Of a DNA stretch of 61,014 nt, positions 5,673-58,316 are shown piece after piece. This DNA comes from Candidatus Yanofskybacteria bacterium (GTDB lineage Bacteria > Patescibacteriota > Minisyncoccia > 2-02-FULL-40-12 > IGHO2-01-FULL-4-A): NCBI GenBank assembly GCA_016185545.1, contig JACPNJ010000006.1, forward strand, positions 1-61,014, given 5' to 3'. The position numbers were made by a program, and so were the translations under genes. How positions within the stretch are numbered: the first letter of the stretch is position 1; each line of letters begins with the position of its first letter. The notes beneath the pieces are model-generated. The model was not told the DNA's origin. It saw nothing but the letters and a program-made list of their open reading frames with translations, and did no database searches.

Positions 5673-6377
5673 ATGAGGCTTCCACACAAAACTCTTGAAA
5701 AAAAATTATTTGCGGACGGTTATCGCCATGTTATTGGCATAGATGAAGTTGGAATGGCTTGTCTGGCCGGACCTGTTTATGTTTGCGCGGTTTTGTTTAC
5801 TAAAGAATTTTTCGAAAAACCACATAAAAACCTGATCGGCTTGCGCGACTCCAAACAACTCTTACCGCATCAACGCGAAAAATTTTATGCCGAACTTATA
5901 AAAGAAGAGGGGATTAAGTACCAATTGGCTTCCTGCAATCCGAAAACAATAGACAAAATTAATATATATCAGGCGGCAAGGTTGACAATGAGAAGAGCCG
6001 TGAACAAACTAGGCGTCAGGTGCCAGGTGTCAGGTGTCAGAAAATCAAAACAAAAAAATTTTTACCTGAAACCTGTAACCTGCAACCTGAAACCTGCCGT
6101 TGTATTGGTTGATGGCAAGACTCCCATTAACGGTCTAAATCTGCCTCAAATGGCAATCGTGAAAGGCGACCGCAAGATTTTTGCTATTGCCTGCGCCTCT
6201 ATTATAGCCAAGGTTACCAGAGACCGCGTTATGTCACACCTTGCCAAGCGCTACCCCCAATACGGTCTTGAAAAACATAAGGGCTACCCAACCAAACTGC
6301 ACAAAGCCATGCTCATCCAACACGGTATTTGCGAAATACACAGAAAGTCTTTTGCACCAATAACTAAACTGCTATAA
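5673..6377 (+). CDS. rnhB: Ribonuclease HII, with a 29-codon in-frame heptamer-array insertion
   Basis: GIDEVGMACLAGPV (catalytic DE), VLVDGK, and IACASIIAKVTRD..YGLEKHKGYPT..H. Confidence 0.9.
   Translation: MRLPHKTLEKKLFADGYRHVIGIDEVGMACLAGPVYVCAVLFTKEFFEKPHKNLIGLRDSKQLLPHQREKFYAELIKEEGIKYQLASCNPKTIDKINIYQAARLTMRRAVNKLGVRCQVSGVRKSKQKNFYLKPVTCNLKPAVVLVDGKTPINGLNLPQMAIVKGDRKIFAIACASIIAKVTRDRVMSHLAKRYPQYGLEKHKGYPTKLHKAMLIQHGICEIHRKSFAPITKLL
6011..6097. repeat. Heptamer-periodic inverted array inside rnhB
   Basis: Sequence is aggcgtc aggtgcc aggtgtc aggtgtc ag, then an A-rich loop, then acctgaa acctgta acctgca acctgaa acctg. It is 87 nt (29 codons) with no stop. Confidence 0.9.
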
Positions 6378-25618: not shown

Positions 25619-25695
25619 GTTTCGGGTGTCAGGTTTCAGGGACCAGGTTAAAGAAAAATTTTCCCTGTAACCTGTAACCTGTAACCTGTAACCTG
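25617..25695. repeat. Heptamer-periodic inverted array (stop-to-start)
   Basis: Sequence aggtttc gggtgtc aggtttc agggacc aggttaa, loop agaaaaattttc, then (cctgtaa)x4 cctg. It overlaps the TAG at 25616-25618 and abuts the ATG at 25696. Confidence 0.9.
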
Positions 25696-29984: not shown

Positions 29985-31481
29985 TTAACTCTCAATCTCC
30001 TCGGACAAGCCCGGGGATTTTTTGAGGGAGAGGATTTCGCGAAGGTCAGCTCTTGTGAAAACCCCCAGGGCTAACAAAAGGGGGAAATATAAAAACGAAA
30101 CCATGGATGCCTTAACAAAATTATTCGTGAGCGGATACATTAGTGCAACAATAATGGCCCCGACCAAAATAGTTTTGGCAAATAAGGTTTTGCTGACCGC
30201 AATTTTAATACTTCGTCGGATTAGCCAAAACATGGTAATGGTTATAAAAATCTCGGTTATTACCGTCGTTGAAGCGGCGGCAAAGTAGGTGTACTTGGGA
30301 ATCAGCAAAAAGTTCAGTCCCACATTAATTACCGCTCCGGTAAGGTAAATCCACATGGCTTTTTTCTGCAGGTTTAAGGCGATAATCGCGTTGCCGCCGA
30401 GGTTGCCAAAAAATATCAAGAATATGGCAAAACTCAAAATTTTCAGCACCGGGCTGGCTTCAAGAAAGGCACCACCGCCAATGGCTTTAACAATCCAATC
30501 GGACATCAGAAAAATATAGACGGAAAAATAAAGCGCGAAAATTGTGATTACATTGAAGGCGCGTCTGAAGGTTTTAGCAAATTCCACCCTGCTTTTAACC
30601 GCGAAGCGGGAAAGAAAAGGCATAACCAAACCGATATAAATCGCCGGCAGAAATATCACTGCTTCCAAAACTTTATAGGCCGCTGAATAAATACCGACAT
30701 CTCGGGCGGGTTTCATCACTGAAAGCATTACCGTGTCCAGTTTAAAATAGATAAGAACCAACACCAAGGAAACCGCGATTGGTAAAGCGGCCTTGAGAGC
30801 GTGGTGGAAATAAGCAAAGTCAATCATCGGCTTTACTTTAACCATACGCCTGGAGAATCCATAAATAAGGCCAAAATGAACCGCCTCCGAAAAAACCACG
30901 ACAGCCACAAACCACAAAAGACCTGTTTCAAATTTAATTAGTATCACCAACGAACCTAACTGAACCAGCCGAGCCAAAATATCGGAGAATGAAACAAGAT
31001 AAATACGCAGATACTTTTGAAATATCCCTGTCAGAACTTGAACTAAAGACGCGCCGATGGAAAAAAGGGAAGCAATCAAAACACCAAGTTTAACTTTGAG
31101 CGGGTAGGGAAATGCGAAAATTAGCAGGTCGGCCAGAATGATTATTGAAACCACCGCCAGAAGGCGCAGGGTGAAGATTTTGCTTGCAATTTTTCTTTCT
31201 TCGGTGGGTTCACTGGTACGCGAGATTTCACGCACCATAAAAGTATAAAGCCCTAAATCGGCAGTAGCCGTAAAAATAAAAAGATAGGCAAAAATCGCGC
31301 TGTACTGGCCGAATCCCTCCGGCCCCAAAAAGCGCGTCAAAATCCCAACGACAACCAAACTCAACCCGCCTATTATTCCGCGCGATAGCGTCGCTATCCC
31401 CAAATTGTATGAAATTTTTTGCAGCATGCCTTGTTTAAAATACTCCCATTTCATCTCATCTTTTAACTCTATCACAATCAC
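29985..31481 (-). CDS. Polysaccharide/oligosaccharide flippase (Wzx / MOP superfamily-like)
   Basis: 498 aa with about 12-14 transmembrane segments in the layout typical of the family. Assigned from topology and composition only. Confidence 0.6.
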   Translation of the reverse strand: MIVIELKDEMKWEYFKQGMLQKISYNLGIATLSRGIIGGLSLVVVGILTRFLGPEGFGQYSAIFAYLFIFTATADLGLYTFMVREISRTSEPTEERKIASKIFTLRLLAVVSIIILADLLIFAFPYPLKVKLGVLIASLFSIGASLVQVLTGIFQKYLRIYLVSFSDILARLVQLGSLVILIKFETGLLWFVAVVVFSEAVHFGLIYGFSRRMVKVKPMIDFAYFHHALKAALPIAVSLVLVLIYFKLDTVMLSVMKPARDVGIYSAAYKVLEAVIFLPAIYIGLVMPFLSRFAVKSRVEFAKTFRRAFNVITIFALYFSVYIFLMSDWIVKAIGGGAFLEASPVLKILSFAIFLIFFGNLGGNAIIALNLQKKAMWIYLTGAVINVGLNFLLIPKYTYFAAASTTVITEIFITITMFWLIRRSIKIAVSKTLFAKTILVGAIIVALMYPLTNNFVKASMVSFLYFPLLLALGVFTRADLREILSLKKSPGLSEEIES

Positions 31482-31610
31482 ACTTCCACAACTAACACTC
31501 TCACATTCTCAAGAATATGAGAGTATTGTGATTCAGCAGGGTTTAAACCCAATAAAAATAGGGTTGATAACTTAATTTGTTTTTAGTGAGGTTGGGGGTA
31601 TGATGAAATT

Positions 31611-34439
31611 ATGAAAAAAAATAAATTTTTGTTTATGTGTCTGGTCGTTTTGGGTTCGTTTTTGTATTTCGCTGATACAAGTAACGCCGCCACTTGTTCG
31701 CTAAGTTTTTCCAGTCCGCATGGAAGCTATATCGCGGTGGGTGACAGAGTAACCTGGACGCTTACCAGCAGTTTCTCCAACGGCAAATCTTACTGGTTTG
31801 GAACTAAAAATGGGGTAACAGATGTCAGCACAATGGATACCACTTTTGGCAACCCCTTTAGCTGGACCACCGATCCTTACCCTTCAGATACAATCGGCAA
31901 TTACACTCGCTGGGTGCAAGTAAAAGATATCAACGGCAATTTCCTTTGTCAGACCGCTACGGTTTTTGTTTCAGTAACTGCCGCTCCTACACCAATCCCA
32001 ACCCCCACTCCAACTCCCACACCCGCCATGCTTCCCACCGCCTCTCTTTCGGTCACGCCTTCAACTGTTACTGCCGGTCAGAATCTCACATACAGTTGGT
32101 CTTCAACAAATGCTACCGCTTGGTCTTGGGGATTGGCTATTTATAAAAACGGAGTTTGGCAAACTTCTGACGCTTGCGTTAATCAATCTTCAAGTAATTG
32201 GTCTGGACCACAAGGCGGAAATTCTGCACAAGGTTTCTGGACCGGAGTAACTGTTTCCTGCCAAGCCGGATATACTTACCATATTACTTACAAAGCCACA
32301 AATAGCAGTGGGGCCGCGATATCACAACCCGTAATTGTAACTGTAACGGCGGCAACGCCTATGCCGACTCCAGTTCCGACACCAACTCCTTCATCAACAT
32401 CGACGCCGACCAGTACTACCACTGCTTCTCTTAACTTCACGGCAACCGAAAGTACCAACCCTGTTTTTCGCGTCGGCAACAGTTTTATTCTCAATTTAAC
32501 CTCTAACCAATACTCACAGCCCTTTTATCTTTGCTCCACATTGACCGGCAATCCGAGCGGCTACAACCACACAAACCGGTGCACATCGACCACTCTGACA
32601 ACAAATTCCAGCGGAAGATATGCATGGAATGGAACATGGGACAGCACTAATATCGGTACCTGGACGGAATGGGTAAGATTTCCCAATACGCCCGGAGGTT
32701 ATAACTCACCGACAATAACATTTACAATTGCCCAATCTACGATTGTCCAAGAGGAACTACGTCTTGTTGCTCCCGGAGTTTTTTCCTTAACAGTCGACTA
32801 CAATAATGATGTTATAAGAAGCGGCTATTTTTACATCGAGGCCGCATTTGAAAGCCTTTTTAGCAAGTATAAAGACGATATGGATGCTATTGTTCTTGTC
32901 CCTACAGCGTCGTTGATTAATTCAGTTGAAGGAAGGGGAATTTGTACTTGTGCTTGGGGTGTTAGAAAGCTAGTGGAAGGCATTGGTTATCCCTATGGGG
33001 GCATAACGGGCGACTCTAGATTTTTCAGCTTAAGTTTAATTCCAATATATGCAGGAGCACAGGATAGCGATCAAGCAATAAAAGCAGCGTTTATGCCAAA
33101 TTTGCTTCATGAAATAGGTCATGGCTGGTCAACTTTTATTGCAAGAGGTAGAGATTACAAAAACCCCCTAAAAATATTAGAGGAACAGCAATTTTCTCAT
33201 TGGGGATATATTTCAGATAATTTTGATTCTGTTATGGCCTATGGCCCGGCAAGAATGATTGATAATAAAGACGGCACTTTCACTCCCGTCTGGAAATTTA
33301 GAGAAGAATTGGATTTCAACGATTTTGACTTATATACGATGGGTTTATTGCCGCCAGAAAAAGTAAAACCTACTTTCTCTATTTTTAACGCAGCAAGTGT
33401 AAAAAATATCAATGATATCAGGGGCAACAGAAGGGACGTTACCATCAACGATATTATAAATTTGGAAGGAACAAGAAACCCTACTTTCGGATTAACCCGA
33501 AATAATCAATCAAACAACATAAGAGTCACCTTTTTAATTGCCCACAATTTAGATGGTTCTGCCAGTGATCTGGAAAAAGCCATGACCATTACCAAGCAAA
33601 TGGCAGATTTACTGCCTAGCCATTGGAACAAAGCCGCTAAAGGCACGTCAACTGCGTCTGTTTTTACTCCACCTTTAAAAGTAGCTTCAAATAAAAAAAC
33701 GTTGGCCGTACTCCAATCAAAAACAAACGAAGAATTGCGAAAAGAGGTAATAGATATATTAAATCAAACCCATGACGATGGGCCTGCCTCAAGAAGATCT
33801 ATTCAGGAACAGCAACAAGATTTTCAGAAGGCATTAGAAAAAAAATCTATATCTAAACAGAGTTTACCTTCATCTCCAACAATTGACGACACTCTGCTAC
33901 CGACTCCATCTCTTACACCCCTGCCTACCCCTACTCCGCCAATAAACCAAGCAAGGTTATATTCCCTATCAGAGATTTATGACGGCGACTTAATTCGGGG
34001 TCAGGGCGACATAGCGGTTTGGATAATAAAAATTGTCGGAGAAAAAAGATATAAGCGCTGGCTGTTTGGCCCTCAGATATTTAACGCATATGGACATCTC
34101 AGTTTTGATAAAGTTAAAAATGTCAGCAAGGTAACTTTGAACAATTTTGATACTTCTAATCTGATTAGAAAATTTGACGATGAGAAAGTTTATGAGCTAA
34201 CTGATTTTGTGCCCGGCAAAAGCGCCACGAGGCGCTGGATACAAACTCTGGAAATATTTCTCCAAAGAGGATTTGATTTTGACGCGGTATATATCGTCAA
34301 TCAAAGAGAGTTTGATTTGTACACCGAAGGTTCACCTCTGCCGGTAACTATGCGGGAAAAAGAGGCCAAAAATAATCTTCCACTGACTGCCAATATTTCC
34401 GATGCTATGCTAAGATTTTTGGGATTAACGGCAAGATAG
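31611..34439 (+). CDS. Large secreted protein with Pro/Thr linkers and a zincin-like HExxH motif
   Basis: Signal peptide, TPIPTPTPTPTP and PMPTPVPTPTPSSTSTPTS linkers, and LLHEIGHGW. Confidence 0.6.
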   Translation: MKKNKFLFMCLVVLGSFLYFADTSNAATCSLSFSSPHGSYIAVGDRVTWTLTSSFSNGKSYWFGTKNGVTDVSTMDTTFGNPFSWTTDPYPSDTIGNYTRWVQVKDINGNFLCQTATVFVSVTAAPTPIPTPTPTPTPAMLPTASLSVTPSTVTAGQNLTYSWSSTNATAWSWGLAIYKNGVWQTSDACVNQSSSNWSGPQGGNSAQGFWTGVTVSCQAGYTYHITYKATNSSGAAISQPVIVTVTAATPMPTPVPTPTPSSTSTPTSTTTASLNFTATESTNPVFRVGNSFILNLTSNQYSQPFYLCSTLTGNPSGYNHTNRCTSTTLTTNSSGRYAWNGTWDSTNIGTWTEWVRFPNTPGGYNSPTITFTIAQSTIVQEELRLVAPGVFSLTVDYNNDVIRSGYFYIEAAFESLFSKYKDDMDAIVLVPTASLINSVEGRGICTCAWGVRKLVEGIGYPYGGITGDSRFFSLSLIPIYAGAQDSDQAIKAAFMPNLLHEIGHGWSTFIARGRDYKNPLKILEEQQFSHWGYISDNFDSVMAYGPARMIDNKDGTFTPVWKFREELDFNDFDLYTMGLLPPEKVKPTFSIFNAASVKNINDIRGNRRDVTINDIINLEGTRNPTFGLTRNNQSNNIRVTFLIAHNLDGSASDLEKAMTITKQMADLLPSHWNKAAKGTSTASVFTPPLKVASNKKTLAVLQSKTNEELRKEVIDILNQTHDDGPASRRSIQEQQQDFQKALEKKSISKQSLPSSPTIDDTLLPTPSLTPLPTPTPPINQARLYSLSEIYDGDLIRGQGDIAVWIIKIVGEKRYKRWLFGPQIFNAYGHLSFDKVKNVSKVTLNNFDTSNLIRKFDDEKVYELTDFVPGKSATRRWIQTLEIFLQRGFDFDAVYIVNQREFDLYTEGSPLPVTMREKEAKNNLPLTANISDAMLRFLGLTAR

Positions 34440-34523
34440 CGTGCACGTGACAATTGCAATAAAACCAAAACCTGCAGAAATGCAGATTTTGATTTTTGAA
34501 GTCAAAAAAAGCCCGGATGGGCT

Positions 34524-35165
34524 TCATAAAAAATATGGTCTGAGGCGGGCGACTGTTTCCGCGCATAGCCGTTTGTCTAACTCGGGATCCATGTTGCGCC
34601 AATTGCCGCGTTCAGGACGGCCGAGAAGTTCGGCGGCAACGGTGCGCAAATATTGCGGCGGCGCCGACGGATTCCAGCAAACCATGAATTTTCCCTTTGG
34701 GGTTGTCCAAAGAAGATATGGTTCCCGACGCATTTGGTAAAGTTCATGAAGATGCGCGGCGTATTGATGAAGCTCCTCAAATTCAGCTATCGGGAAGTCA
34801 GTACGAATTCTGGGTGTAAAATCAACCGCCACCGACATAAAAGGCATAAAATGAGTGTGAGCATGTTGGATGGTCTGCCCCACGATGCCGTGTTCAAAAA
34901 TAATTACAGGATAAGACACCGACTGAACATTTTGACAATATTCTAATGAAAGTGCCCGATAAATTTTTCTTCGTAAATCAAACGTAGTAATTGTGCACAC
35001 AGGAGAAAGCGCACCCATGCACGACACATGTTCTTTAGGAATCAACAGCACATAGCCGCCGTCTGTTATCTGGCCAAGGGTAGCAACAACATAAAAATCT
35101 TCGTTCTCATGAATAAGCCGTTCTTCCAATTTGCTTCGGTCACAAAAAACACAATCTTTTTGCAT
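34524..35165 (-). CDS. HIT-superfamily nucleotide hydrolase/transferase-like protein
   Basis: Histidine-triad motif HAHTHFMP and an N-terminal CVFCD. Confidence 0.65.
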   Translation of the reverse strand: MQKDCVFCDRSKLEERLIHENEDFYVVATLGQITDGGYVLLIPKEHVSCMGALSPVCTITTFDLRRKIYRALSLEYCQNVQSVSYPVIIFEHGIVGQTIQHAHTHFMPFMSVAVDFTPRIRTDFPIAEFEELHQYAAHLHELYQMRREPYLLWTTPKGKFMVCWNPSAPPQYLRTVAAELLGRPERGNWRNMDPELDKRLCAETVARLRPYFL

Positions 35166-35261
35166 CGCTCTTCCTAATTTTCAAAGACCATCTATCTTCT
35201 AAAACTACTTTATTAATAACTCGGCGTCAATTAAACCCTAGAAACATCTGGAGTAAATTCC

Positions 35262-35463
35262 CTGATTTTCCTTGCATCAGGCGGAGGCCATAGAGGTTTG
35301 CGGGGATTCTGAAATTGTGTGATTGCATGGCCGGCGAGCAGTATAATGTCTTGTGCGGTAGCACACTGCGAGCCGAATCCACAATTTCAAAATAGTGGAG
35401 CGAGTCGCTGGACGAGCGGAACGTCCCCGCAGACCTCTATGGCGGAGCCGCAAGGAAAATCAG
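35262..35463. repeat. 202-bp palindromic element (MITE-like, or a structured RNA) downstream of jag
   Basis: The outer arms ctgattttccttgc / gcaaggaaaatcag pair, then ccatagaggtttgcgggga / tccccgcagacctctatgg, then gaaattgtgtgatt / gaatccacaatttc. The right end is repeated at 48042-48086. Confidence 0.6.
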
Positions 35464-35981
35464 AGAGGAAGTGATGGTTTAATGACAACCCGGCGCCTTG
35501 GTTCCTGGCCAATGCTTTCAGTTTGAAGTTCCTTAAATGACGCCAACTCGGTATGCACCAATCGCCGCTCATAAGAACTCATGGGCAATAGCGCCTCCGC
35601 TTTTTGAGTCTGGATTACCCGCTTGGCGGTATTGCGAGCTACATCAACCAAATAATTAGTTTTTGATTTGCGATAATCATTAATATCAACCATAAAATTA
35701 ATTGGAAATTCAACATTATAATTGTTAAGCTTCTTATTAACAAGTAAATGAGCAATATGATCAAAAGCACTAAGATTTTGCCCATTTTTACCAATTAGTA
35801 TACTTAAATCATCATCAGAATCAATGGAAACGATAAAGAAACTTCTTTTTTCTTCACGGGTTAGATCATTATTCGCCGGCACTGGCGTATTATCACTTAA
35901 TTTAACTACACCACCAAAACCAACTTTGTTTAAAAGGTCTAGAACTGTTTCCTCAATTTTATTTTTTATATCATCGGGCAT
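35460..35981 (-). CDS. jag: Jag/KhpB-like RNA-binding protein (KH + R3H)
   Basis: C-terminal R3H region LPMSSYERRLVHTEL. It holds the conserved position after yidC. Confidence 0.8.
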   Translation of the reverse strand: MPDDIKNKIEETVLDLLNKVGFGGVVKLSDNTPVPANNDLTREEKRSFFIVSIDSDDDLSILIGKNGQNLSAFDHIAHLLVNKKLNNYNVEFPINFMVDINDYRKSKTNYLVDVARNTAKRVIQTQKAEALLPMSSYERRLVHTELASFKELQTESIGQEPRRRVVIKPSLPL

Positions 35982-35986
35982 AATTT

Positions 35987-36691
35987 TTACCGGTATTTCC
36001 GGTTTATATAAAGCTGTTCAAATATGGAAAAAGCCGTAGCGGTTACCCAATAAATGGTCAACCCGGCAGGTAAATTCCAAGCGATAATTATAACCATAAT
36101 CGGGAAAAAATACAACATCTGCTTACTCATTTGGAAAGTGGGAGAAGGAATCTCGTTTTTGGAAGCCGGGGCTTGAAAAGAAGCTGCTTTTTTTGATTGA
36201 AACCATTGTAAAATTCCGGCTAAAACGGCTAAAATGGCATTCTTTTGGGTAAGGTTAATGAACCCAAATGCAATTTGTTTTATAGCCACTGGATGACTTA
36301 CAAACGAATATAAAGCCGTAAGACTTTCGGGTTTTAATCCAGAATTTAATGCGCTATAAAGCGCAATTAGAACCGGAAGTTGTATAAGGAGCGGCAAACA
36401 GCCGCCAAACGGATTTACATTATGCTCCTTATAAAGGGCCATGGTTGCCTGACCCAGTGCTTGCTTGTCGTTTTTGTGTTTTTCCTGAAGCTCTTTGATT
36501 TTTGGCTGAAGCTTGCTTAATTCTTTTTGCGATACCAGCGCTTTAATTGATAAGGGTGTAAATACTAATCTAACTACGATTGTCAGTAAAATAATCGCTA
36601 CGCCAAAATCATTTCCAGGAACAATGTTGTAAATAAAAACCAAGAGGTTGAATAGGGGACGGAAGAGAAGTTCGTTGTATAAAAAACCCAA
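35987..36691 (-). CDS. yidC: YidC/Oxa1-family membrane insertase (TTG start)
   Basis: PL..KA..SQ.E...LQPKIKELQEK.K.D, NPFGGCLP.LIQ.P, and the conserved operon position. Confidence 0.85.
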   Translation of the reverse strand: MGFLYNELLFRPLFNLLVFIYNIVPGNDFGVAIILLTIVVRLVFTPLSIKALVSQKELSKLQPKIKELQEKHKNDKQALGQATMALYKEHNVNPFGGCLPLLIQLPVLIALYSALNSGLKPESLTALYSFVSHPVAIKQIAFGFINLTQKNAILAVLAGILQWFQSKKAASFQAPASKNEIPSPTFQMSKQMLYFFPIMVIIIAWNLPAGLTIYWVTATAFSIFEQLYINRKYR

Positions 36692-36693
36692 AC

Positions 36694-36766
36694 TAGGTTA
36701 TAGGTTATAGGTTATAGGTTATAGGTTTAAAATTTCTAACACCTATAACCTATCAGCTATCACCTG
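36694..36766. repeat. Heptamer-periodic inverted array (yidD stop to yidC start)
   Basis: (taggtta)x4-5, loop taaaatttctaa, then cacctat aacctat cagctat cacctg. The plus-strand right arm contains the yidD TGA, and the other end lies 2 nt from the yidC start. Confidence 0.9.
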
Positions 36767-36990
36767 ATTTCATATATTCCGCCTCTAGACAGCGGATTAC
36801 ATCTTAAAATCCTTGCCAGTCCTTTTAACACGCCCTTTACTACTCCCCATCTCTCAATCGCTTCATATGTATATTGCGAACAACTTGGATAAAAACGACA
36901 GCGCATACTGCCTCCGGCAAAAATGAACCCGTGGTCAGGCGAAATTGTTGCTTGATAAAATCTAATTATTTTTAAAAATATTTTTGTCAT
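36760..36990 (-). CDS. yidD: Membrane protein insertion efficiency factor YidD
   Basis: [13 protein letters not shown]...G..KG..L...RI.RCNP. Confidence 0.9.
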
Positions 36991-37322
36991 TGACTGATAA
37001 TTTTATTTAATGTTTGCTGAATTTCTCTATTGATTTCTTTTGACTGCTTCCCTACGATATCCACAGTAGCAATAATTGCGATATCGTACGATTTTTCCAA
37101 AAAATGTCCAGAGCGAATCGCTTCCGTAAAAATTCTTTTGATGCGATTTCTTGCGGTTGCCTTTTTTGCGACCTTAACGGGAATAATTATTGCTATCCGC
37201 AAAAAATCAATATTATTTTTTAAAAACTTAATAAAGAAAAAACTGTTTCGGACAGTTTTTCCATGTTTGAATAGGCGGTTAATATCTTTCCTGGGTAAAC
37301 GGTATTTTTTGGCTAAAGCCAA
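36987..37322 (-). CDS. rnpA: Ribonuclease P protein component (TTG start)
   Basis: Basic protein with ..ATARNRIKR.. (RNR motif), positioned directly after rpmH. Confidence 0.85.
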
Positions 37323-37328
37323 GCATTC

Positions 37329-37388
37329 AGGTTATAGGTTACAGGTTATAGGTTACAGGTTTTTTCTGACACCTGACGCCTGACACCT
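37329..37388. repeat. Heptamer-periodic inverted array (rpmH stop to rnpA start)
   Basis: Sequence aggttat aggttac aggttat aggttac aggt, loop tttttct, then gacacct gacgcct gacacct. Confidence 0.9.
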
Positions 37389-37524
37389 AAACAGTAAGCT
37401 GTTGTCTTCCTTTCCGGCGACGGCGAGCTAAAACTTTTCTGCCATTTTTGGACCTAGCCCGTTTTAAAAATCCATGAGTCTTGGCTCTTTTCTTCTTTTT
37501 TGGACGATATAATGTAATTTTCAT
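37387..37524 (-). CDS. rpmH: 50S ribosomal protein L34 (45 aa; below the ORF-track length cut-off)
   Basis: Hand translation gives [45 protein letters not shown]. Confidence 0.9.
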
Positions 37525-37579
37525 CCTGTACGAGGTAGCAACAGCAACCACATAAGTTAAGTTACGTACCCGCGATTAT
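37522..37579. repeat. 58-bp inverted repeat, left copy (forms the rpmH leader and start codon)
   Basis: Its reverse complement, ataatcgcgggtaCgtaacttaacttatgtggttGctgttGctacctcGtacAggATG, matches 39500-39557 with 5 mismatches. Confidence 0.9.
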
Positions 37580-37795
37580 TCATATTAGCTTATCGTAGCA
37601 AAAAACGATTTATTTTGCAATTACAAGAAGATGGTTTCAAAACCATCTTCAAAGTTGTTAACTTCTAATCAACACATTGTCAACGAAGTTCATGTTTTAT
37701 AATATTTTCTCTCAATTATAATTAAGTTATGCTTCGCAGTAAAAATTCGAGATACTGCGAAACGGTTATTATTAATACTCGAACTACTATATGAT

Positions 37796-39163
37796 ATGAC
37801 CAACGAAGAACTCTGGAAAGCAGTGCTAACAGAAATGGAATTATCCCTTTCAAGGGCTAATTTTACCACCTGGTTCAAGGGTACTTCATTACTGGCAAAT
37901 AATAGCAACTCGGTTTTAGTCAGCGTGCCTAATGGTTTTGTTAAAGAGTGGCTGGAAAACAAATTCGGCAGACAAATTCTTCAAACCATAAGAAGTCTCC
38001 GGCCGGAAATACGGGAGGTTAAGTATACAATTGGCGGCATCCGTGTTGGTTTGGCAATGCAAAAGAAAGATTTTGCTCAGTTTGTGCCGGAAAAAACCAA
38101 TGAAGACAAGTCTGATGCCGACATTGATAAACTGACTAATCTCAATAAACGCTACACTTTTGGTTCTTTTGTTGTGGGAAGCAATAATGAATTGGCTTAT
38201 GCCGCTAGTTTGGCGATTACTAAAAATTTAGGTAAGGTTTATAATCCGCTTTTTATTTATGGCGGGGTCGGTTTAGGTAAAACCCACCTGCTTCAGGCTG
38301 TTGGTAACCAAGCGATTTCAACTGATCAAAATAAAAAAGTTTGCTATATTTCTTCTGAAAGATTAACTGCCGATATAGTAGAGTCGTTAAAAAATAAAAC
38401 CATAGAAGAGATGAAGCAACGTTACGCTAAGCTTGATCTTTTAATTATTGACGATATTCAATTTATTGCCGGAAAAGAAAGAACACAAGATATATTTTTT
38501 GCGACTTTTAACGAGCTTTACGGCAAAAACCGGCAGATAGTTCTATCATCTGATCGTCCGCCAAGCGCCATACCGGCGCTGGAAGAGCGGCTCCGCTCTA
38601 GATTCGAAGGAGGAATGATCGCCGACATAGGAATACCTGATTATGAGACTCGACTAGCGATACTAAATATGAAATGTAAGGAGAAAAATTTTGAAGTTGA
38701 TCAAAATTCCCTTGCTTATATCGCCTCAAATATTCAGAAAAATATTCGCGAACTTGAGGGCGCTCTAAATCGTATAATAGCTTTTAGCCAAATATATACT
38801 AAGACCCCTGATTTTAAAGAAGTTAAAAAGCTTTTAGCAGCTTATCTTAATACTCCATACCGCAAAACTACTCATCAATCTATTATGAGATCTGTGGCTG
38901 ATTTTTATGGCGTTCCTCCCAACGATTTAATCAAAAGAAGTCGTAAAAAAGAAATAGTCAGACCTAGGCAAATCGCAATGTTTCTATTAAGGGAGGAAAC
39001 TAAGTCTTCTTTTCCAGAAATTGGCTCTAAATTAGGCGGCAGAGACCACTCGACGGTTATACACGCTTATGAGAAAATAAAAAAAGAAGAAGAAAACGAC
39101 GAAACAACAAAACAAGAATTAACTTTAATTAAAGAAAGGATATATCAGACATTTGAAAATTAA
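37796..39163 (+). CDS. dnaA: Chromosomal replication initiator protein DnaA
   Basis: Walker A GGVGLGKTHLL, box VII/sensor region LIIDDIQF, and C-terminal DNA-binding RPRQIAMFLLRE..GGRDHSTVIHA. Confidence 0.95.
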   Translation: MTNEELWKAVLTEMELSLSRANFTTWFKGTSLLANNSNSVLVSVPNGFVKEWLENKFGRQILQTIRSLRPEIREVKYTIGGIRVGLAMQKKDFAQFVPEKTNEDKSDADIDKLTNLNKRYTFGSFVVGSNNELAYAASLAITKNLGKVYNPLFIYGGVGLGKTHLLQAVGNQAISTDQNKKVCYISSERLTADIVESLKNKTIEEMKQRYAKLDLLIIDDIQFIAGKERTQDIFFATFNELYGKNRQIVLSSDRPPSAIPALEERLRSRFEGGMIADIGIPDYETRLAILNMKCKEKNFEVDQNSLAYIASNIQKNIRELEGALNRIIAFSQIYTKTPDFKEVKKLLAAYLNTPYRKTTHQSIMRSVADFYGVPPNDLIKRSRKKEIVRPRQIAMFLLREETKSSFPEIGSKLGGRDHSTVIHAYEKIKKEEENDETTKQELTLIKERIYQTFEN

Positions 39164-39440
39164 ACATACTTAGCATGTTGAAAATATGATGATAAATTTA
39201 TTGATATCTTTGTTTATTATTTATGGTTAATTACTTGATAAAATAAAAATTTAATAAAAATATTTTTTATTTAACAATTTATACATAAATTTTAAGACTA
39301 GTTATCATTAAATTATTAACAGAAAATTATTTAAAATTATACTTATATATCTTACTAAATTTAAAATAATCATAACTTATACACAACTCTTATAATTAGT
39401 AATTAATTTAATAAACTAATAATAAGAACAATAATGGGAT
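39164..39440. other. Probable oriC / DNA-unwinding region (very AT-rich dnaA-dnaN spacer)
   Basis: About 280 nt that is almost entirely A/T. It holds DnaA-box-like 9-mers TTATACACA (39377-39385) and TTATACATA (39279-39287), and sits in the conserved rpmH/dnaA/dnaN context. Confidence 0.6.
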
Positions 39441-39499
39441 GGATCCCGAACGAGGTAGCCCTCACGGGTTCATGGTCCAAGACTATCCAAAGTTTAAAC

Positions 39500-39557
39500 A
39501 TAATCGCGGGTATGTAACTTAACTTATGTGGTTACTGTTACTACCTCTTACGGGATG
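39500..39557. repeat. 58-bp inverted repeat, right copy (forms the dnaN leader and start codon)
   Basis: Sequence ataatcgcgggtaTgtaacttaacttatgtggttActgttActacctcTtacGggATG. See 37522-37579. Confidence 0.9.
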
Positions 39558-40643
39558 GATATTATAGTAAATCAAAAAAAACTTATATCAGCAGTCAGAA
39601 TCGTCGAGAAAGCAGTTTCTAAAAATGTTTCACTGCCGATATTAAATACAATTCTTCTTAAAACTGATAATAATCGTTTAAAACTATCGGCGACTAATCT
39701 TGAAATTGGTATAAATTATTGGCTTGGCGTTAAAATTAATGAAAATGGAGAAATTGCGGTACCAGCTAGGATTTTTTCTGATTTTATTAGTAACATAACC
39801 GATGAGAAATTATCATTAGCTGTTAAAAAAAATGTCATAGCTATCAACTCAGAGCACTATAAAACACAGATTCTGGGTATGGATACTAAAGATTTTCCTA
39901 TAATTCCGCAAATTAAAAAAGAAATTTCGTTTAAAATAAATAGTCAAACACTGAAAACGGCTTTAATAAGTGTATTAGATTCTGTTTCATTGTCTGAAAC
40001 CAGGCCGGAGCTTAGCGGGGTGTATGTTAATATTTCAACCAATCGAGTTGAATTAGCGGCAACTGATAGTTTTCGCCTTTCTGAAAAAATAATAGGTTTA
40101 AGCGACGGTAAAAATAAAACATGTATATTACCACGTAATACAGTTATTGAAATAATAAGAATATCTGAAAATATTGAAGGAGATTTATCGCTTGCTATTT
40201 CAGATAACCAAGTTATTGTTTTTGGAGAAGATTTTGAAATAATCTCGCGCCTTATTGACGGTCATTATCCGGAATATAAGCGGGTAATTCCGGAAAAATT
40301 TATAGCGCTTGCTAAGGTTAATAAAACCGAATTTGAAAAATCAATCCGTATGGCAAGTATTTTTTCATCTTCAATTTCGGATATTAAACTTAAAGCCAGT
40401 AAAGAGTTAATGGAAATATCAGCCAAAAACAGCGACCGTGGTGAAATAACCGCCGACCTTGCCTGTGAAATTAAAAATAGACCGTTTGAGATTTCGGTCA
40501 ATTACCATTATTTATTGGACGGCTTAAAAGTTCTACCAACAGAGCACGTTATCCTAGAATTTACCGGCGACGGCAGTCCGCTGGTTATAAAAGGTGATGG
40601 GCAGAAAGACCAAACTTACGTGATTATGCCATTGAGGAGTTAA
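39555..40643 (+). CDS. dnaN: DNA polymerase III beta sliding clamp
   Basis: Three-domain length, LPIL..IL.., ATD..RL, and the position after dnaA. The start is set at ATG 39555 (MDIIVNQKKL); the upstream 9 codons belong to the repeat. Confidence 0.9.
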   Translation: MDIIVNQKKLISAVRIVEKAVSKNVSLPILNTILLKTDNNRLKLSATNLEIGINYWLGVKINENGEIAVPARIFSDFISNITDEKLSLAVKKNVIAINSEHYKTQILGMDTKDFPIIPQIKKEISFKINSQTLKTALISVLDSVSLSETRPELSGVYVNISTNRVELAATDSFRLSEKIIGLSDGKNKTCILPRNTVIEIIRISENIEGDLSLAISDNQVIVFGEDFEIISRLIDGHYPEYKRVIPEKFIALAKVNKTEFEKSIRMASIFSSSISDIKLKASKELMEISAKNSDRGEITADLACEIKNRPFEISVNYHYLLDGLKVLPTEHVILEFTGDGSPLVIKGDGQKDQTYVIMPLRS

Positions 40644-44887: not shown

Positions 44888-44962
44888 AGGTTTCAGTTTT
44901 CAGGGATCAGGTTTCAGGTACTAGAGAAGAACCTGTAACCTGTAACCTGTAACCTGTAACCT
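44888..44962. repeat. Heptamer-periodic inverted array (yebC stop to ruvC start)
   Basis: Sequence aggtttc agttttc agggatc aggtttc aggtac, loop tagagaaga, then (acctgta)x4 acct. Confidence 0.9.
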
Positions 44963-46211: not shown

Positions 46212-46253
46212 AGTTGCTAATATAGCAACTATTCAAAACAGCGCAAGTTCCCT

Positions 46254-46292
46254 ACTTAGAGGCTCAACCTCCACGAGGTTGAGCCTCTAAGT
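46254..46292. repeat. REP-like perfect hairpin (17-bp stem), 3' flank of the HUH transposase gene
   Basis: Sequence acttagaggctcaacct CCACG aggttgagcctctaagt. It contains the gene's stop codon. Confidence 0.9.
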
Positions 46293-46952
46293 AAGAAGTA
46301 AAAGCTCTAGAGATTTTACCATTTCTTTTCGTTCTTTTGAGATGGCCAATGCTTTTTTGGCAAAATCTTTATATTCCGTAATGTTGGAAAACTGTGAAAG
46401 TATTATTTTTTTGTTGCAGAAACTGTTACCTGGCAACTCTTTTCCTAAATATTCTTCCCAGCTTGTTTTAGATAACAACTTAGAGGATGAGCCTCTAATT
46501 TGATGGGCTTCCGGATTTAGATTTATGTAGGCGTTTAAGTGTAGTAAGTATTCGTTAGAATCAACATGGATAGCTTTATATCTGCCTTGAAAAAGCGCTC
46601 CGCTAAAGTTATGTTTGTCATTTAGATATCGCGTGTAGCCAGTGCCTAAACGATGAATAAATTTTTGTACACCATCTTGTTCAAGTTGTTGCACTAAAAA
46701 GTGGTAATGATTGGGATTTAAGCAGTAGCACACAAAGTCAACCAATCTCTTTGATTTTGGTGTTGGATTTTCCGCCAATCCTTTTTCTAAAGATAGTGAG
46801 TAAAGACTGCCAATGGGCTCTTTTGTATTAAACTCTCGCATGCTTAGCAAAAAACGATTCAAATCAAAGCGGTCAATGAAAATTGGCCTTTTGTTGTTAC
46901 CCCTATTAAAGACATGATAAAACTCACCATTTTCAAATCGAATTTTTCTCAT
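46287..46952 (-). CDS. IS200-like / REP-associated tyrosine transposase (RAYT-type, HUH Y1 family)
   Basis: YHVFNRGN, the HUH motif NPNHYHFLV, and LFQGRYKAIHVDSNEYLLHLNAYINLNP. Confidence 0.75.
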   Translation of the reverse strand: MRKIRFENGEFYHVFNRGNNKRPIFIDRFDLNRFLLSMREFNTKEPIGSLYSLSLEKGLAENPTPKSKRLVDFVCYCLNPNHYHFLVQQLEQDGVQKFIHRLGTGYTRYLNDKHNFSGALFQGRYKAIHVDSNEYLLHLNAYINLNPEAHQIRGSSSKLLSKTSWEEYLGKELPGNSFCNKKIILSQFSNITEYKDFAKKALAISKERKEMVKSLELLLLT

Positions 46953-46973
46953 TCTATTCTTATACCATATCCA

Positions 46974-47012
46974 ACTTAGAGGCTCAACCTCGTGGAGGTT
47001 GAGCCTCTAAGT
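46974..47012. repeat. REP-like perfect hairpin, 5' flank of the HUH transposase gene (loop inverted relative to 46254)
   Basis: Sequence acttagaggctcaacct CGTGG aggttgagcctctaagt. Confidence 0.9.
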
Positions 47013-47046
47013 GAGAGGATGGGTGAAAAAAATCCCGTTAGTGGGA

Positions 47047-47940
47047 TTAATGAACTAGAGTTTTCGGGTCAATGCCGATTTCTTTAAGGGCTTTGTCGTG
47101 TAACGCGGCCAAGCCGGCTAAAAGCGTCAGTTGTTGCATGGGAGAATCGGTGTTGTGGCAAGAGAATTCATAGCCCCGGCCATCTCTCATGGTTGAGTTA
47201 GAAGAAGGGTTCAGTCCGCAAGCATTGCCCGGGCAAGTTACATTTAGCCAACCGTTATCATAATCAACCGAGGCCCTAAAGTCATATCCACCAAGAGAGT
47301 CAAGTCCAAACATATAGTCGTATGCTTCCGTCATGGCTGTAACCATTTCGGCAACATTTCCCCTTATAGCGCTTAACCATTTGACCAGAGGGACGCTGTA
47401 TATTCCGTGAAGCGACCCTCCGTGCATACCCCTTTCAGTTATGGTTTCAACCGTCAACAATTGCGGTGTTTTTGCTGAAGTTTCAATTTCGATATAATAA
47501 CTTATTTGAAAAAACACGGTTAAACTGACTGAAACCGCAAAGGCATCATGCCAATCAATTACGTTTTCTTTTCCGCTCCCGCCGCATGAAAAACAATTAT
47601 CACCAGTAAAATCTTTACCGCTTCCGCTACAAAGAGAACAAATTTTTGTTTCCTGTTTTTTAACTAACGGAAGTTCAATACAAAAAACGGAAAAGTTATT
47701 ACAATCATCTTGTTTTTTAAAGGCGCTCTCAAACCCGAAGTTGCCCTTAAAATCTCCGCAAAAAGTTTTTAACTCAAATTCTTTTTTGAAATATTCAATA
47801 ATAGGCGCTGTTTCCGGTATTATTTCTTGTTTGGCAATGAAATCTTTATGAACCCTAAGAATAATGGCCGACGGTTTTGCTTTGCCTTGCCAAGATAACT
47901 CATACCAGCATGGCATATAATCTCTTGTAAGTATTTTCAT
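47047..47940 (-). CDS. Hypothetical protein with DnaJ-type CxxCxGxG zinc-finger pair
   Basis: CSLCSGSGKDFTGDNCFSCGGSGKE. No other recognisable domain. Confidence 0.5.
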   Translation of the reverse strand: MKILTRDYMPCWYELSWQGKAKPSAIILRVHKDFIAKQEIIPETAPIIEYFKKEFELKTFCGDFKGNFGFESAFKKQDDCNNFSVFCIELPLVKKQETKICSLCSGSGKDFTGDNCFSCGGSGKENVIDWHDAFAVSVSLTVFFQISYYIEIETSAKTPQLLTVETITERGMHGGSLHGIYSVPLVKWLSAIRGNVAEMVTAMTEAYDYMFGLDSLGGYDFRASVDYDNGWLNVTCPGNACGLNPSSNSTMRDGRGYEFSCHNTDSPMQQLTLLAGLAALHDKALKEIGIDPKTLVH

Positions 47941-48041
47941 AATCTCTCCGAAACTAAGTTGTTAAGAATCTTCTATCCCGAGCTAATCATATTTGTGAGT
48001 AAAAGGCAATAAAATAGATAGAAAAGCCGAACCGATCCTAC

Positions 48042-48086
48042 AGGCCTCTATGGCGGAGCCCAAGGGAAATCAGAGGGCAAGTGTGG
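48042..48086. repeat. Solo copy of the right end of the 35262-35463 element, overlapping the ruvB stop
   Basis: The sequence aggcctctatggcggagcccaagggaaatcagagggcaagtgtgg corresponds to agacctctatggcggagccgcaaggaaaatcagagaggaagtgatgg at 35431-35477. Confidence 0.8.
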
Positions 48087-57113: not shown

Positions 57114-58316
57114 ATGTCTAAGAAACAAATTTATCTGGATTATGCCGGGACGACACCAATGGATCCGCGGGTAGAACGGGTGGTTTTGAAGCACCTGCGG
57201 GAGAGCTGGGGCAATGCGTCGTCAGTGCATGAAATTGGAAGGCAGGCAAGAAAAGTAATTGAGGATTCTCGCAAAACCGTAGCAAAAGTTTTGGGAGTAA
57301 AATCGGAGGAGATAATTTTTACCGGCTCTGGCACCGAATCGGCAAATCTGGCGATATTTGGAGTGGCGAGGGCATATAAAAAATACGGCAAACATATTAT
57401 AACTTCAAAATTTGAGCATCCTGCCGTTTTGCGCGCTTGCCAGTATCTGGAGCAAAATGAGGGGTTTAAAGTTAGCCATTTGGATGTCAGTAAAAACGGA
57501 ATTATTAATCCAGAATCCGTACGCAGAGCATTGAGACCGGACACAATTTTAGTTTCAATTATGTATGCCAATAACGAGATTGGCACGATACAGCCAATTG
57601 CGGCTATCTCTAAAATCTTAAAAGATTTTAGAGATAGCCGCAGGTTACAGGTTACAGGTTACAGGTTACAGATGTATGAAAAAGCTCTGCTTTTTCATAC
57701 TGACGCTTGCCAAGCGGCAGGAGCTTTGAATTTAAATATTAATCAACTTGGCGTTGATTTAATGACGCTTAACGGCTCCAAAATTTACGGTCCTAAGGGA
57801 ACTGGCTGCCTTTATGTCAGACGAAATATTGAGCTTGCGCCTCAAATAGTTGGCGGGTCTCAAGAAAGGGGATTACGCGCCGGCACGGAAAACCCCGCTT
57901 TAATTGCCGGATTTACTGAGGCGCTAAAAATCGTCGATAAAAACCGTGCCAAAGAAAACGCGCGATTAACTGAACTGCGCGATTATATGATTGGGCAAAT
58001 TTTAAAAACAATTCCCGGCGGTTGTCTTAATGGTGACGCAATTAAACGTTTGCCTAACAATATCAATATCTCCTTCAAAGATACAGACGGCGAAATGCTG
58101 ATGTTGGCATTTGATCAAAAAGGTATTCAAGTTTCAACCGGTTCCGCTTGCACCTCCACTTCAACTGAACCATCGCATGTGCTCAAAGCCATTGGTTTAT
58201 CCGATGAACTTGCAAAAGGAAATATCCGTATAACTCTTGGCCGGCAGACAAAGAAAAAAGACATAGACTATGTCCTAAAGACGCTCGTATCTCTTGTGAA
58301 AAAATTACGCAAATAG
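57114..58316 (+). CDS. Cysteine desulfurase (NifS/IscS class), with an in-frame heptamer-array insertion
   Basis: YLDYAGTTP, HTDACQA, the PLP lysine in LNGSKIYGPKG, and the catalytic Cys in STGSACTS. The start is set at ATG 57114, downstream of the terminator hairpin. Confidence 0.9.
   Translation: MSKKQIYLDYAGTTPMDPRVERVVLKHLRESWGNASSVHEIGRQARKVIEDSRKTVAKVLGVKSEEIIFTGSGTESANLAIFGVARAYKKYGKHIITSKFEHPAVLRACQYLEQNEGFKVSHLDVSKNGIINPESVRRALRPDTILVSIMYANNEIGTIQPIAAISKILKDFRDSRRLQVTGYRLQMYEKALLFHTDACQAAGALNLNINQLGVDLMTLNGSKIYGPKGTGCLYVRRNIELAPQIVGGSQERGLRAGTENPALIAGFTEALKIVDKNRAKENARLTELRDYMIGQILKTIPGGCLNGDAIKRLPNNINISFKDTDGEMLMLAFDQKGIQVSTGSACTSTSTEPSHVLKAIGLSDELAKGNIRITLGRQTKKKDIDYVLKTLVSLVKKLRK
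57642..57671. repeat. Heptamer array (single arm, AGGTTAC x4) inside the cysteine desulfurase gene
   Basis: Sequence aggttac aggttac aggttac aggttac ag, translated as RLQVTGYRLQ. A perfect 11-bp hairpin follows at 57674-57700. Confidence 0.9.

Follow-up and report, generated by a model that had tools for sequence, protein, structure and literature searches.

The window analyzed here, the 61,014-nucleotide (nt) contig JACPNJ010000006.1 (GCA_016185545.1) of a Candidatus Yanofskybacteria bacterium, carries an imperfect inverted repeat that brackets dnaA and whose two copies abut the start codons of rpmH and dnaN. We consider it very probable that this repeat is a by-product of two insertions, resembling those of MITEs (miniature inverted-repeat transposable elements), into the ATGRA start sequences of these divergent genes, the inverted arrangement of the copies being due to the divergence of rpmH and dnaN. 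As the target consists of the start codon and two further bases, the open reading frame (ORF) is regenerated intact at the right-hand end of the element. The element is short and non-coding, and has terminal inverted repeats, a target duplication with empty sites in relatives, and dispersed copies, as MITEs do.

The identity between the two copies in the window is far above chance. A repeat finder places the arms at 37506-37579 and 39500-39573 (74 nt each, 86% complementary, with 1920 nt between them), and alignment of 37522-37579 on the minus strand with 39500-39557 on the plus strand returns the 53 identities in 58 positions given in the first-pass annotation of this DNA, corresponding to 50 of 55 positions of the element plus the ATG. 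Comparison by blastn of the regions upstream and downstream of dnaA gives E = 3.75e-20, and a 32-nt core pattern is present exactly twice in 61 kb, versus 0 in 100 shuffles. The outward-facing ATG adjoining each copy is likewise borne out (rpmH at 37524, minus strand, and dnaN at 39555, plus strand, both genes being confirmed by Pfam), as is the content of the intervening segment, namely dnaA (37796-39163) together with the two AT-rich spacers. Identity between the arms is 91%, their longest uninterrupted match extends over 20 nt, and, within the shared 55 nt, their five differences are private substitutions relative to the family consensus, two in the dnaN copy and three in the rpmH copy, which reflect decay, with no sign of homogenization.

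The full-length copy of the element (111 nt) occupies 39444-39554 on the plus strand, directly before dnaN (family profile E = 1.7e-32), and its right 55 nt (39500-39554) form the second arm of the inverted repeat. Its left terminal repeat, CCCGAACGAGGTAG (39445-39458), is preceded by an extra T at 39444 and is complementary at 12 of 14 positions to the right terminal repeat, CTACCTCTTACGGG (39541-39554); the additional partner noted earlier at 39445 as able to pair with 39541, a pairing that the repeat finder confirms, is this left terminal inverted repeat. The element is enclosed by two copies of ATGGA on the plus strand, one at 39439-39443, which is the duplicated target and opens a 27-codon upstream open reading frame (uORF) ending in TAA at 39520-39522, and one at 39555-39559, which constitutes the first 5 nt of dnaN. 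On the rpmH side, the right-hand 54 nt of the element, without the left terminal repeat, lie at 37525-37578 on the minus strand and form the first arm of the inverted repeat (nhmmer profile positions 54-112, E = 1.8e-12). This truncated copy is again enclosed by a perfect duplication, in this case of ATGAA on the minus strand, with the duplicated target at 37579-37583 opening an 8-codon uORF, and the second copy at 37520-37524 providing the first 5 nt of rpmH.

The corresponding sites in related genomes are empty. Our comparison set comprised 80 related dnaA loci and 6 more obtained by exact-protein look-up, for a total of 86, and the element sequence is absent upstream of rpmH or dnaN in all 86 of these related rpmH-dnaA-dnaN loci; in the 80 related loci, upstream-versus-downstream blastn detected no significant inverted repeat flanking dnaA. 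The repeat is not conserved in relatives, lack of conservation having been named in the first-pass annotation as part of what would speak against inversion. In the four closest relatives (DnaA 89-94% identical), exactly the element and one copy of the direct repeat are missing at both genes, and synteny alignment shows that a fifth relative, L084 (DnaA 90%), also lacks the element and one repeat copy. At the dnaN site, the relatives read '...AATAA(n)A' followed by a single ATGGAT where the window has ATGGA, 111 nt, and ATGGA; at the rpmH site, they read '...TAAT ATGAA AAG' on the minus strand, with a single ATGAA, where the window has ATGAA, 54 nt, and ATGAA. L001 and L081-L085 lack the truncated rpmH copy, and when the surrounding ±10 kb were aligned for synteny with two relatives, the same blocks were flagged as window-specific. 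The dnaA-dnaN spacer measures 391 nt in the window, versus a maximum of 303 nt among 84 relatives. The element is not an assembly artifact, as it recurs at 100% identity in four assemblies built from other sequencing runs.

The element also occurs elsewhere. A scan of a metagenome collection with a 20-mer from the core matched three unrelated contigs (L087, L088, and L089), each with the full element enclosed by a pair of ATGGA or ATGAA repeats, of which the second starts a gene recognized by Pfam: a T2SSE/PilT-like ATPase gene in L087, rpmJ in L088 (L36 from profile position 1), and ndk in L089 (NDK from profile position 1). Over their full length, these copies show 83-89% identity, rising to 93-96% in the right 55 nt, and they are 111-112 nt long, compared to 111 nt in the window and 110 nt in a diverged relative (L081). 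The element has no coding capacity, with at least one stop per frame, and its terminal inverted repeats, which pair at 12 of 14 positions in the dnaN copy of the window, do so at 13-14 of 14 in L087, L088, L089, and L081. As the ATPase of L087 (592 aa) is just 41% identical to its best-matching homologue in the window, the element has moved between distant hosts. Searches by blastn and nhmmer found no further copies in the window or the collected loci beyond those given here, scans of viral contigs gave 0 matches, and a profile built on the spurious peptide MVTVTTSYGM, discussed below, returned no candidate.

To look beyond the exact family, we scanned 625 kb for 5-nt direct repeats enclosing 30-400 nt with terminal complementarity of at least 12 of 14, and inspected the matches. 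Insertions on start codons were found at yidD in L084 (ATGAA, 120 nt), at yidC in L018 (ATGAG, 122 nt), at dnaA in L051 (TATGA(C), 81 nt), and at rpmH in L014 (ATGAA, 131 nt), where an element with different ends (CCCCACACTCAGTT) has struck, independently, the same ATGAA that was struck in the window. Further matches, counted as three or four intergenic sites away from start codons, lie 1 nt off the yidD ATG on the other strand in L081 (ATTGA, 110 nt), at a -35-like TTGAC upstream of rpmH in L055 (GTTGA(C), 110 nt), 24 nt upstream of dnaA in L038 (98 nt, flanked by TTTTA/ATTTA, an imperfect repeat with 4 of 5 matches), and ~50 nt upstream of rpmH in L009 (TTGAC, 74 nt, unrelated ends). Several of these, among them the insertions on yidD, yidC, and dnaA, have CCCGTTAGAG-type ends like those of the window element and others have different ends; in all, sister elements of the CCCGTTAGAG type are present in 6 relatives and different-end elements in 2 more. 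Thirteen elements are thus available for comparison, of which 12 have a perfect 5-nt flanking repeat (the exception being L038), the sequence of this repeat differing by site, and 9 lie exactly on a start codon, which is therefore not obligatory. A parse with a 2-nt duplication, in which AT is counted within the element, was rejected, as L018 (ATGAG) and L051 fit the 5-nt parse only. We note separately that the elements of L055 (2235-2355) and L009 (2333-2416) are inserted in a TTGAC resembling the -35 box of an rpmH promoter, with L055, in the minus-strand reading, showing TTGACT, an 18-nt spacer, and TATAAT at the insertion; here, the duplication would regenerate the -35 box, as it regenerates the ATG at start codons.

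Mechanistically, integration duplicates a 5-bp target, such that a second ATG remains on the native leader at the left end of the element. The rpmH copy has its own ATGAA duplication, as opposed to the ATGGA at dnaN, and is for this reason taken to be an independent insertion, which would subsequently have undergone an internal deletion of its left 57 nt, a loss that would leave it immobile. The habit of residing on start codons finds its simplest explanation in a preference for ATGRA-like 5-mers combined with the loss of insertions within coding sequence in a gene-dense genome. In 20-kb stretches of two relatives, there are ~90 ATGRA sites on both strands, of which 3-5 are at gene starts and 3-5 are intergenic, with the rest falling in coding sequence. 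Preference combined with selection explains most of the start-codon pattern, but possibly not all of it, and the fixed orientation of the element relative to its target hints at something more specific.

Several observations weigh against two MITE-like insertions as the explanation. Neither a transposase nor an autonomous partner sharing the ends of the element was found, and the window contains none; in the window and ~630 kb of loci, moreover, there is no widely separated pair of ends and no solo end that would point to a long element. Only two copies occur within these 61 kb, and public data contain few representatives of the exact family, with three 20-mer matches in the metagenome collection. 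The rpmH copy has a single terminal repeat, and that it was inserted and later suffered a deletion is something that we infer, as is the manner in which the invaded genes would be expressed. The terminal stem of the window copy is weak (12 of 14 pairs, fold z = -1.97), and AT-rich sequence would by chance be expected to contain stop codons in three frames, as the element does. Finally, preference plus selection predicts that about half of the ATGRA insertions should lie at start codons, whereas all 7 of the 7 observed do so. Together with the fixed orientation, this excess makes genuine targeting conceivable, in a sample that is small and whose loci were collected mostly around dnaA.

Two other interpretations had accompanied the initial description of the repeat. 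In one, the copies constitute a common cis-regulatory leader or promoter, evolved for joint control of the rpmH and dnaN operons. The structural part of this proposal stands, in that the same ~55 nt directly precede both ATGs, and it could draw further support from the five differences between the arms, which fall in unpaired or G-U/A-U positions of a predicted hairpin. As a co-regulatory device, however, the sequence is absent from all 86 relatives, and it precedes unrelated genes elsewhere (the PilT-like ATPase gene, rpmJ, and ndk), while target duplications flank the copies and terminal inverted repeats are present. In addition, the -10-like CATAAT and GAATAAT motifs invoked as promoters find no counterpart in a sigma-70 consensus scan, which places no promoter-like site in the repeat, and Rfam contains no match to either copy, whether in a gathering-threshold scan of the whole window or in an E-value scan of 37350-39700 (E ≤ 10). 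We therefore regard evolved co-regulation as highly improbable. The other interpretation, that the repeats mediate recombinational inversion of a dnaA-oriC module, fares no better, and we give it scarcely any credence. The geometry would permit such an event, as the inverted 55-nt arms lie 1.9 kb apart, and the outward-facing ATGs would keep both ORFs unbroken. In the relatives, however, the order is canonical throughout, with rpmH upstream on the opposite strand in 80 of 80 (where detected) and dnaN downstream on the same strand in 84 of 84, and the single independent contig that spans both copies (L090, from an assembly of another sequencing run) has them in the same orientation as the window. 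Apparent alternative junctions in L092 and L093 proved to be Nextera adapter sequence. Arms of 91% identity with a longest perfect run of 20 nt are, furthermore, a poor substrate for RecA, and the private substitutions described above are at odds with homogenization. The segment itself codes for dnaA only, and there is no recombinase gene either within it or among its neighbors rpmH, rnpA, yidD, and dnaN.

The remaining alternatives retain the element while changing its history or its role. The rpmH copy could be an ectopic copy of the right half of the dnaN element, generated by template switching or gene conversion at the origin, which would account for its lack of a left terminal repeat, for the symmetric placement of both copies around the origin region, and for the C at core position 6 that is common to both. 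We consider this improbable, as the rpmH copy has its own perfect ATGAA duplication, compared to ATGGA at dnaN, which gene conversion would not make, and as L087 likewise has C at position 6. A possibility that we hold to be less remote, while still doubting it, is a mobile leader that homes to start codons: the element would recognize the start sequence in one orientation, and its 3′ module, with stops in three frames, a hairpin, and a terminal stem into which the AU of the ATG is incorporated, would be selected to preserve or tune translation. In line with this, the extra T lies on the same side of the asymmetric repeat in all 9 of the 9 elements that have it (at ATGGA, ATGAA, ATGAG, and ATTGA), including L081, where the neighboring gene is on the other strand. 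Also in its favor are the 7 of 7 ATGRA-type insertions at start codons against the ~50% expected, the right 55 nt being the best conserved and exactly what the rpmH remnant retains, the essential nature of the targeted genes, and the two different elements found independently at the same rpmH ATGAA. Against it, the sample is small and biased, with most loci collected around dnaA; members not located on start codons exist (L038, L055, L009, and L081); and conserved ends are expected of any MITE, just as stops in three frames are expected by chance. Extending this line of thought, one might speculate that there is a superfamily in Patescibacteria, with members of 80-130 nt, many having (T)CCCG...CGGG ends, whose integration is directed to start codons in a fixed orientation, and whose conserved gene-proximal half acts as a portable translation module by way of uORF reinitiation or RNase III processing; equally tentatively, its targets would include essential genes (dnaN, rpmH, rpmJ, dnaA, yidC, yidD, and ndk), and the element would then not be a passive MITE.

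Returning to the two MITE-like insertions, these raise the question of how the invaded genes are expressed. The upstream repeat copy retains the native AT-rich leader at each gene, and the uORFs that it opens (27 codons long in the case of dnaN, 8 in that of rpmH) both end within the element, the conserved core of which, CATAAT...GTAACTTAAC, has a TAA in all three frames. The A and U of the gene's own start codon form part of the closing stem of the terminal repeats, in which there are 3 compensatory pairs. Folding of this terminal stem gives z = -6.6 to -8.0 in sister elements, compared to z = -2.0 for the window copy; the single-sequence fold at the dnaN copy is unremarkable (z = -1.5 to -2.0), and that on the rpmH side (z = -4.2) originates mostly from a separate upstream hairpin. 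The 3′ end of the 16S rRNA is canonical (GATCACCTCCTT), and there is no Shine-Dalgarno sequence before the gene-proximal ATG. Ribosomes could initiate on the native leader, at its upstream ATG, and open the terminal stem, stop at a TAA in the core, and then reinitiate at the gene's own ATG. Alternatively, by analogy with Correia elements, RNase III might cut the terminal stem and thereby free the ATG.

The insertion has also left its mark on the annotation of dnaN. Public DnaN calls (records L090-L093) start at a GTG at 39528 within the element, giving a protein of 371 aa with the prefix MVTVTTSYG, and our ORF listing extends rpmH in a similar way (MVAVATSYR). This extension of DnaN is spurious, an annotation artifact caused by the insertion: the Pfam profiles for the rpmH and dnaN products begin at residue 1 of the proteins read from the ATGs, with PF00712 profile positions 1-120 falling on residues 1-118 of the 362-aa DnaN encoded at 39555-40643 on the plus strand. 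The rpmH gene (37387-37524, minus strand; ribosomal protein L34, 45 aa; PF00468, E = 7e-18) has its true start at the ATG at 37524-37522, in agreement with the N-terminal MK(I/S)TLY of its relatives. Neither the 362-aa DnaN nor L34 (45 and 54 aa) is on record by exact-protein look-up.

Between these genes lies dnaA (37796-39163, plus strand, 455 aa), whose homologues are mostly named Candidatus Yanofskybacteria (Parcubacteria/Paceibacterota, Patescibacteria). The AT-rich dnaA-dnaN spacer at 39164-39438 is a candidate oriC, and holds the single perfect TTATNCACA box in the window (39377-39385), which lies within a block conserved in relatives. The examination of GC skew that had been recommended is in part informative, as the cumulative skew climbs steadily from ~37 kb and is irregular to the left of there, which is loosely supportive of an origin; placing the origin in the dnaA-dnaN spacer is plausible but unproven. 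At 39434-39438, right before the upstream ATGGA of dnaN, is an extra ATGGG that has no counterpart in relatives, and may be the footprint of an earlier insertion and excision at this site. The rpmH-dnaA gap contains a perfect 10-bp hairpin, GAAGATGGTT/AACCATCTTC (37627-37650), with a terminator-like score on the minus strand, which is present in L081 and partly missing in L001. A separate window-specific insertion of 67 nt at 37729-37795 on the plus strand lies between a first ATG (37729) and the dnaA ATG (37796); with the elements at rpmH and dnaN, it means that all three genes of the origin region have an insertion at the start codon. It is missing from L001 and L081-L085, holds a hairpin, TTCGCAGTA/TACTGCGAA, and contains a 21-codon uORF whose TGA ends 1 nt before the dnaA ATG. 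Its membership in the element family was rejected, as alignment scores are at the level of shuffled sequence. Within dnaA, 38258-38317 on the minus strand matches the Rfam family AsdA (antisense RNA of dnaA mRNA) at 26.8 bits, against a gathering threshold of 52 (E = 0.009), which is probably a chance match.

Elsewhere in the window, tandem arrays of the heptamer AGGTTAY are found at 36681-36770, at 37315-37376, and at at least 13 other intergenic sites (e.g., 6062-6095, 25661-25694, 44929-44962, and 57642-57668), often paired with inverted ACCTATA arrays to give long hairpins between genes. The heptamer has 51 matches, compared to 2.3 expected by chance, and similar arrays are present in L001; it looks like a genome-wide intergenic repeat, the arrays possibly being terminators or REP-like elements. 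The 16S rRNA gene (98-2490, with its canonical 3′ end at 2479-2490) appears interrupted, in that 98-1391 covers model positions 875-1387 only (1294 nt for 513 positions), which implies inserted sequences of ~780 nt and ~950 nt. Large blocks at 31438-35469 and 46238-48080 are missing from the syntenic regions of L084 and L085, forming gene-content islands that flank the conserved origin neighborhood. A block of ~160 nt at 35282-35447, in a window-specific island, has an 18-bp closing stem, CCATAGAGGTTTGCGGGG/CCCCGCAGACCTCTATGG, with CGGAG on both sides, and Rfam yields nothing for it at E ≤ 1; this block may represent a further small mobile element or a structured RNA not yet described.

Among known systems, the element is closest in kind to the Correia elements (CREE) of Neisseria and the enterobacterial ERIC/IRU elements, which are likewise ~100-150 nt in length, have terminal inverted repeats and no ORF, duplicate their target, and are found next to genes. 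Such elements are transcribed into mRNA as long hairpins, and the Correia hairpin is cut by RNase III, altering expression. Correia elements, however, duplicate TA and lie at varied distances from genes, whereas the duplication here is of 5 bp, usually ATGRA, and falls, in a single orientation, on the start codon; the element also differs from Correia and ERIC/IRU elements in its sequence and in its host clade, Patescibacteria. The Rickettsia palindromic elements (RPE) offer a parallel for small palindromic mobile DNA tolerated in essential genes of a reduced genome, yet these are inserted in frame within coding sequence and translated, while the present element stays clear of the ORF, contains stops in every frame, and restores the start codon by way of the target duplication. 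In algae and fungi, introner elements similarly use a target duplication that recreates the signal making a gene insertion harmless, but they are eukaryotic and are spliced out, the signal being a splice site, whereas here the regenerated signal is the initiation codon and there is no evidence of removal. The palindrome-associated elements (PATE) derived from IS200/IS605 are also small, hairpin-rich, and strictly oriented relative to a short target, but lack the target duplication and terminal inverted repeats that are both present here; an IS200/IS605-type mechanism was rejected, as the flanking repeat covaries with the site. As to the source of mobility, the 5-bp duplication and CCC(G/C) termini are compatible with the IS1380 family, which has 4-5 bp duplications and ends beginning with CC (ISfinder); this is a lead only.

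While MITEs as such are well known, we found no description of start-codon MITEs in bacteria of the Candidate Phyla Radiation (CPR) in the literature searched, and what appears to be new is that, in reduced genomes, essential genes have their initiation codon duplicated, with a single orientation of the element. For the window itself, the consequence is that the symmetric repeat surrounding dnaA-oriC is a side effect of two transpositions, which removes a tempting overinterpretation. Such insertions cause systematic annotation errors, as in the public dnaN calls that start at the in-element GTG, and repeats of this kind near oriC could mislead both origin prediction and assembly. More broadly, CPR genomes, usually thought to be poor in mobile DNA, have mini-elements that spread horizontally, with copies sharing 83-89% identity across hosts in which homologous T2SSE-family ATPases share ~40%. 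They also provide a natural experiment on translation initiation, in which essential genes tolerate a structured insertion of ~110 nt between their leader and their ATG.

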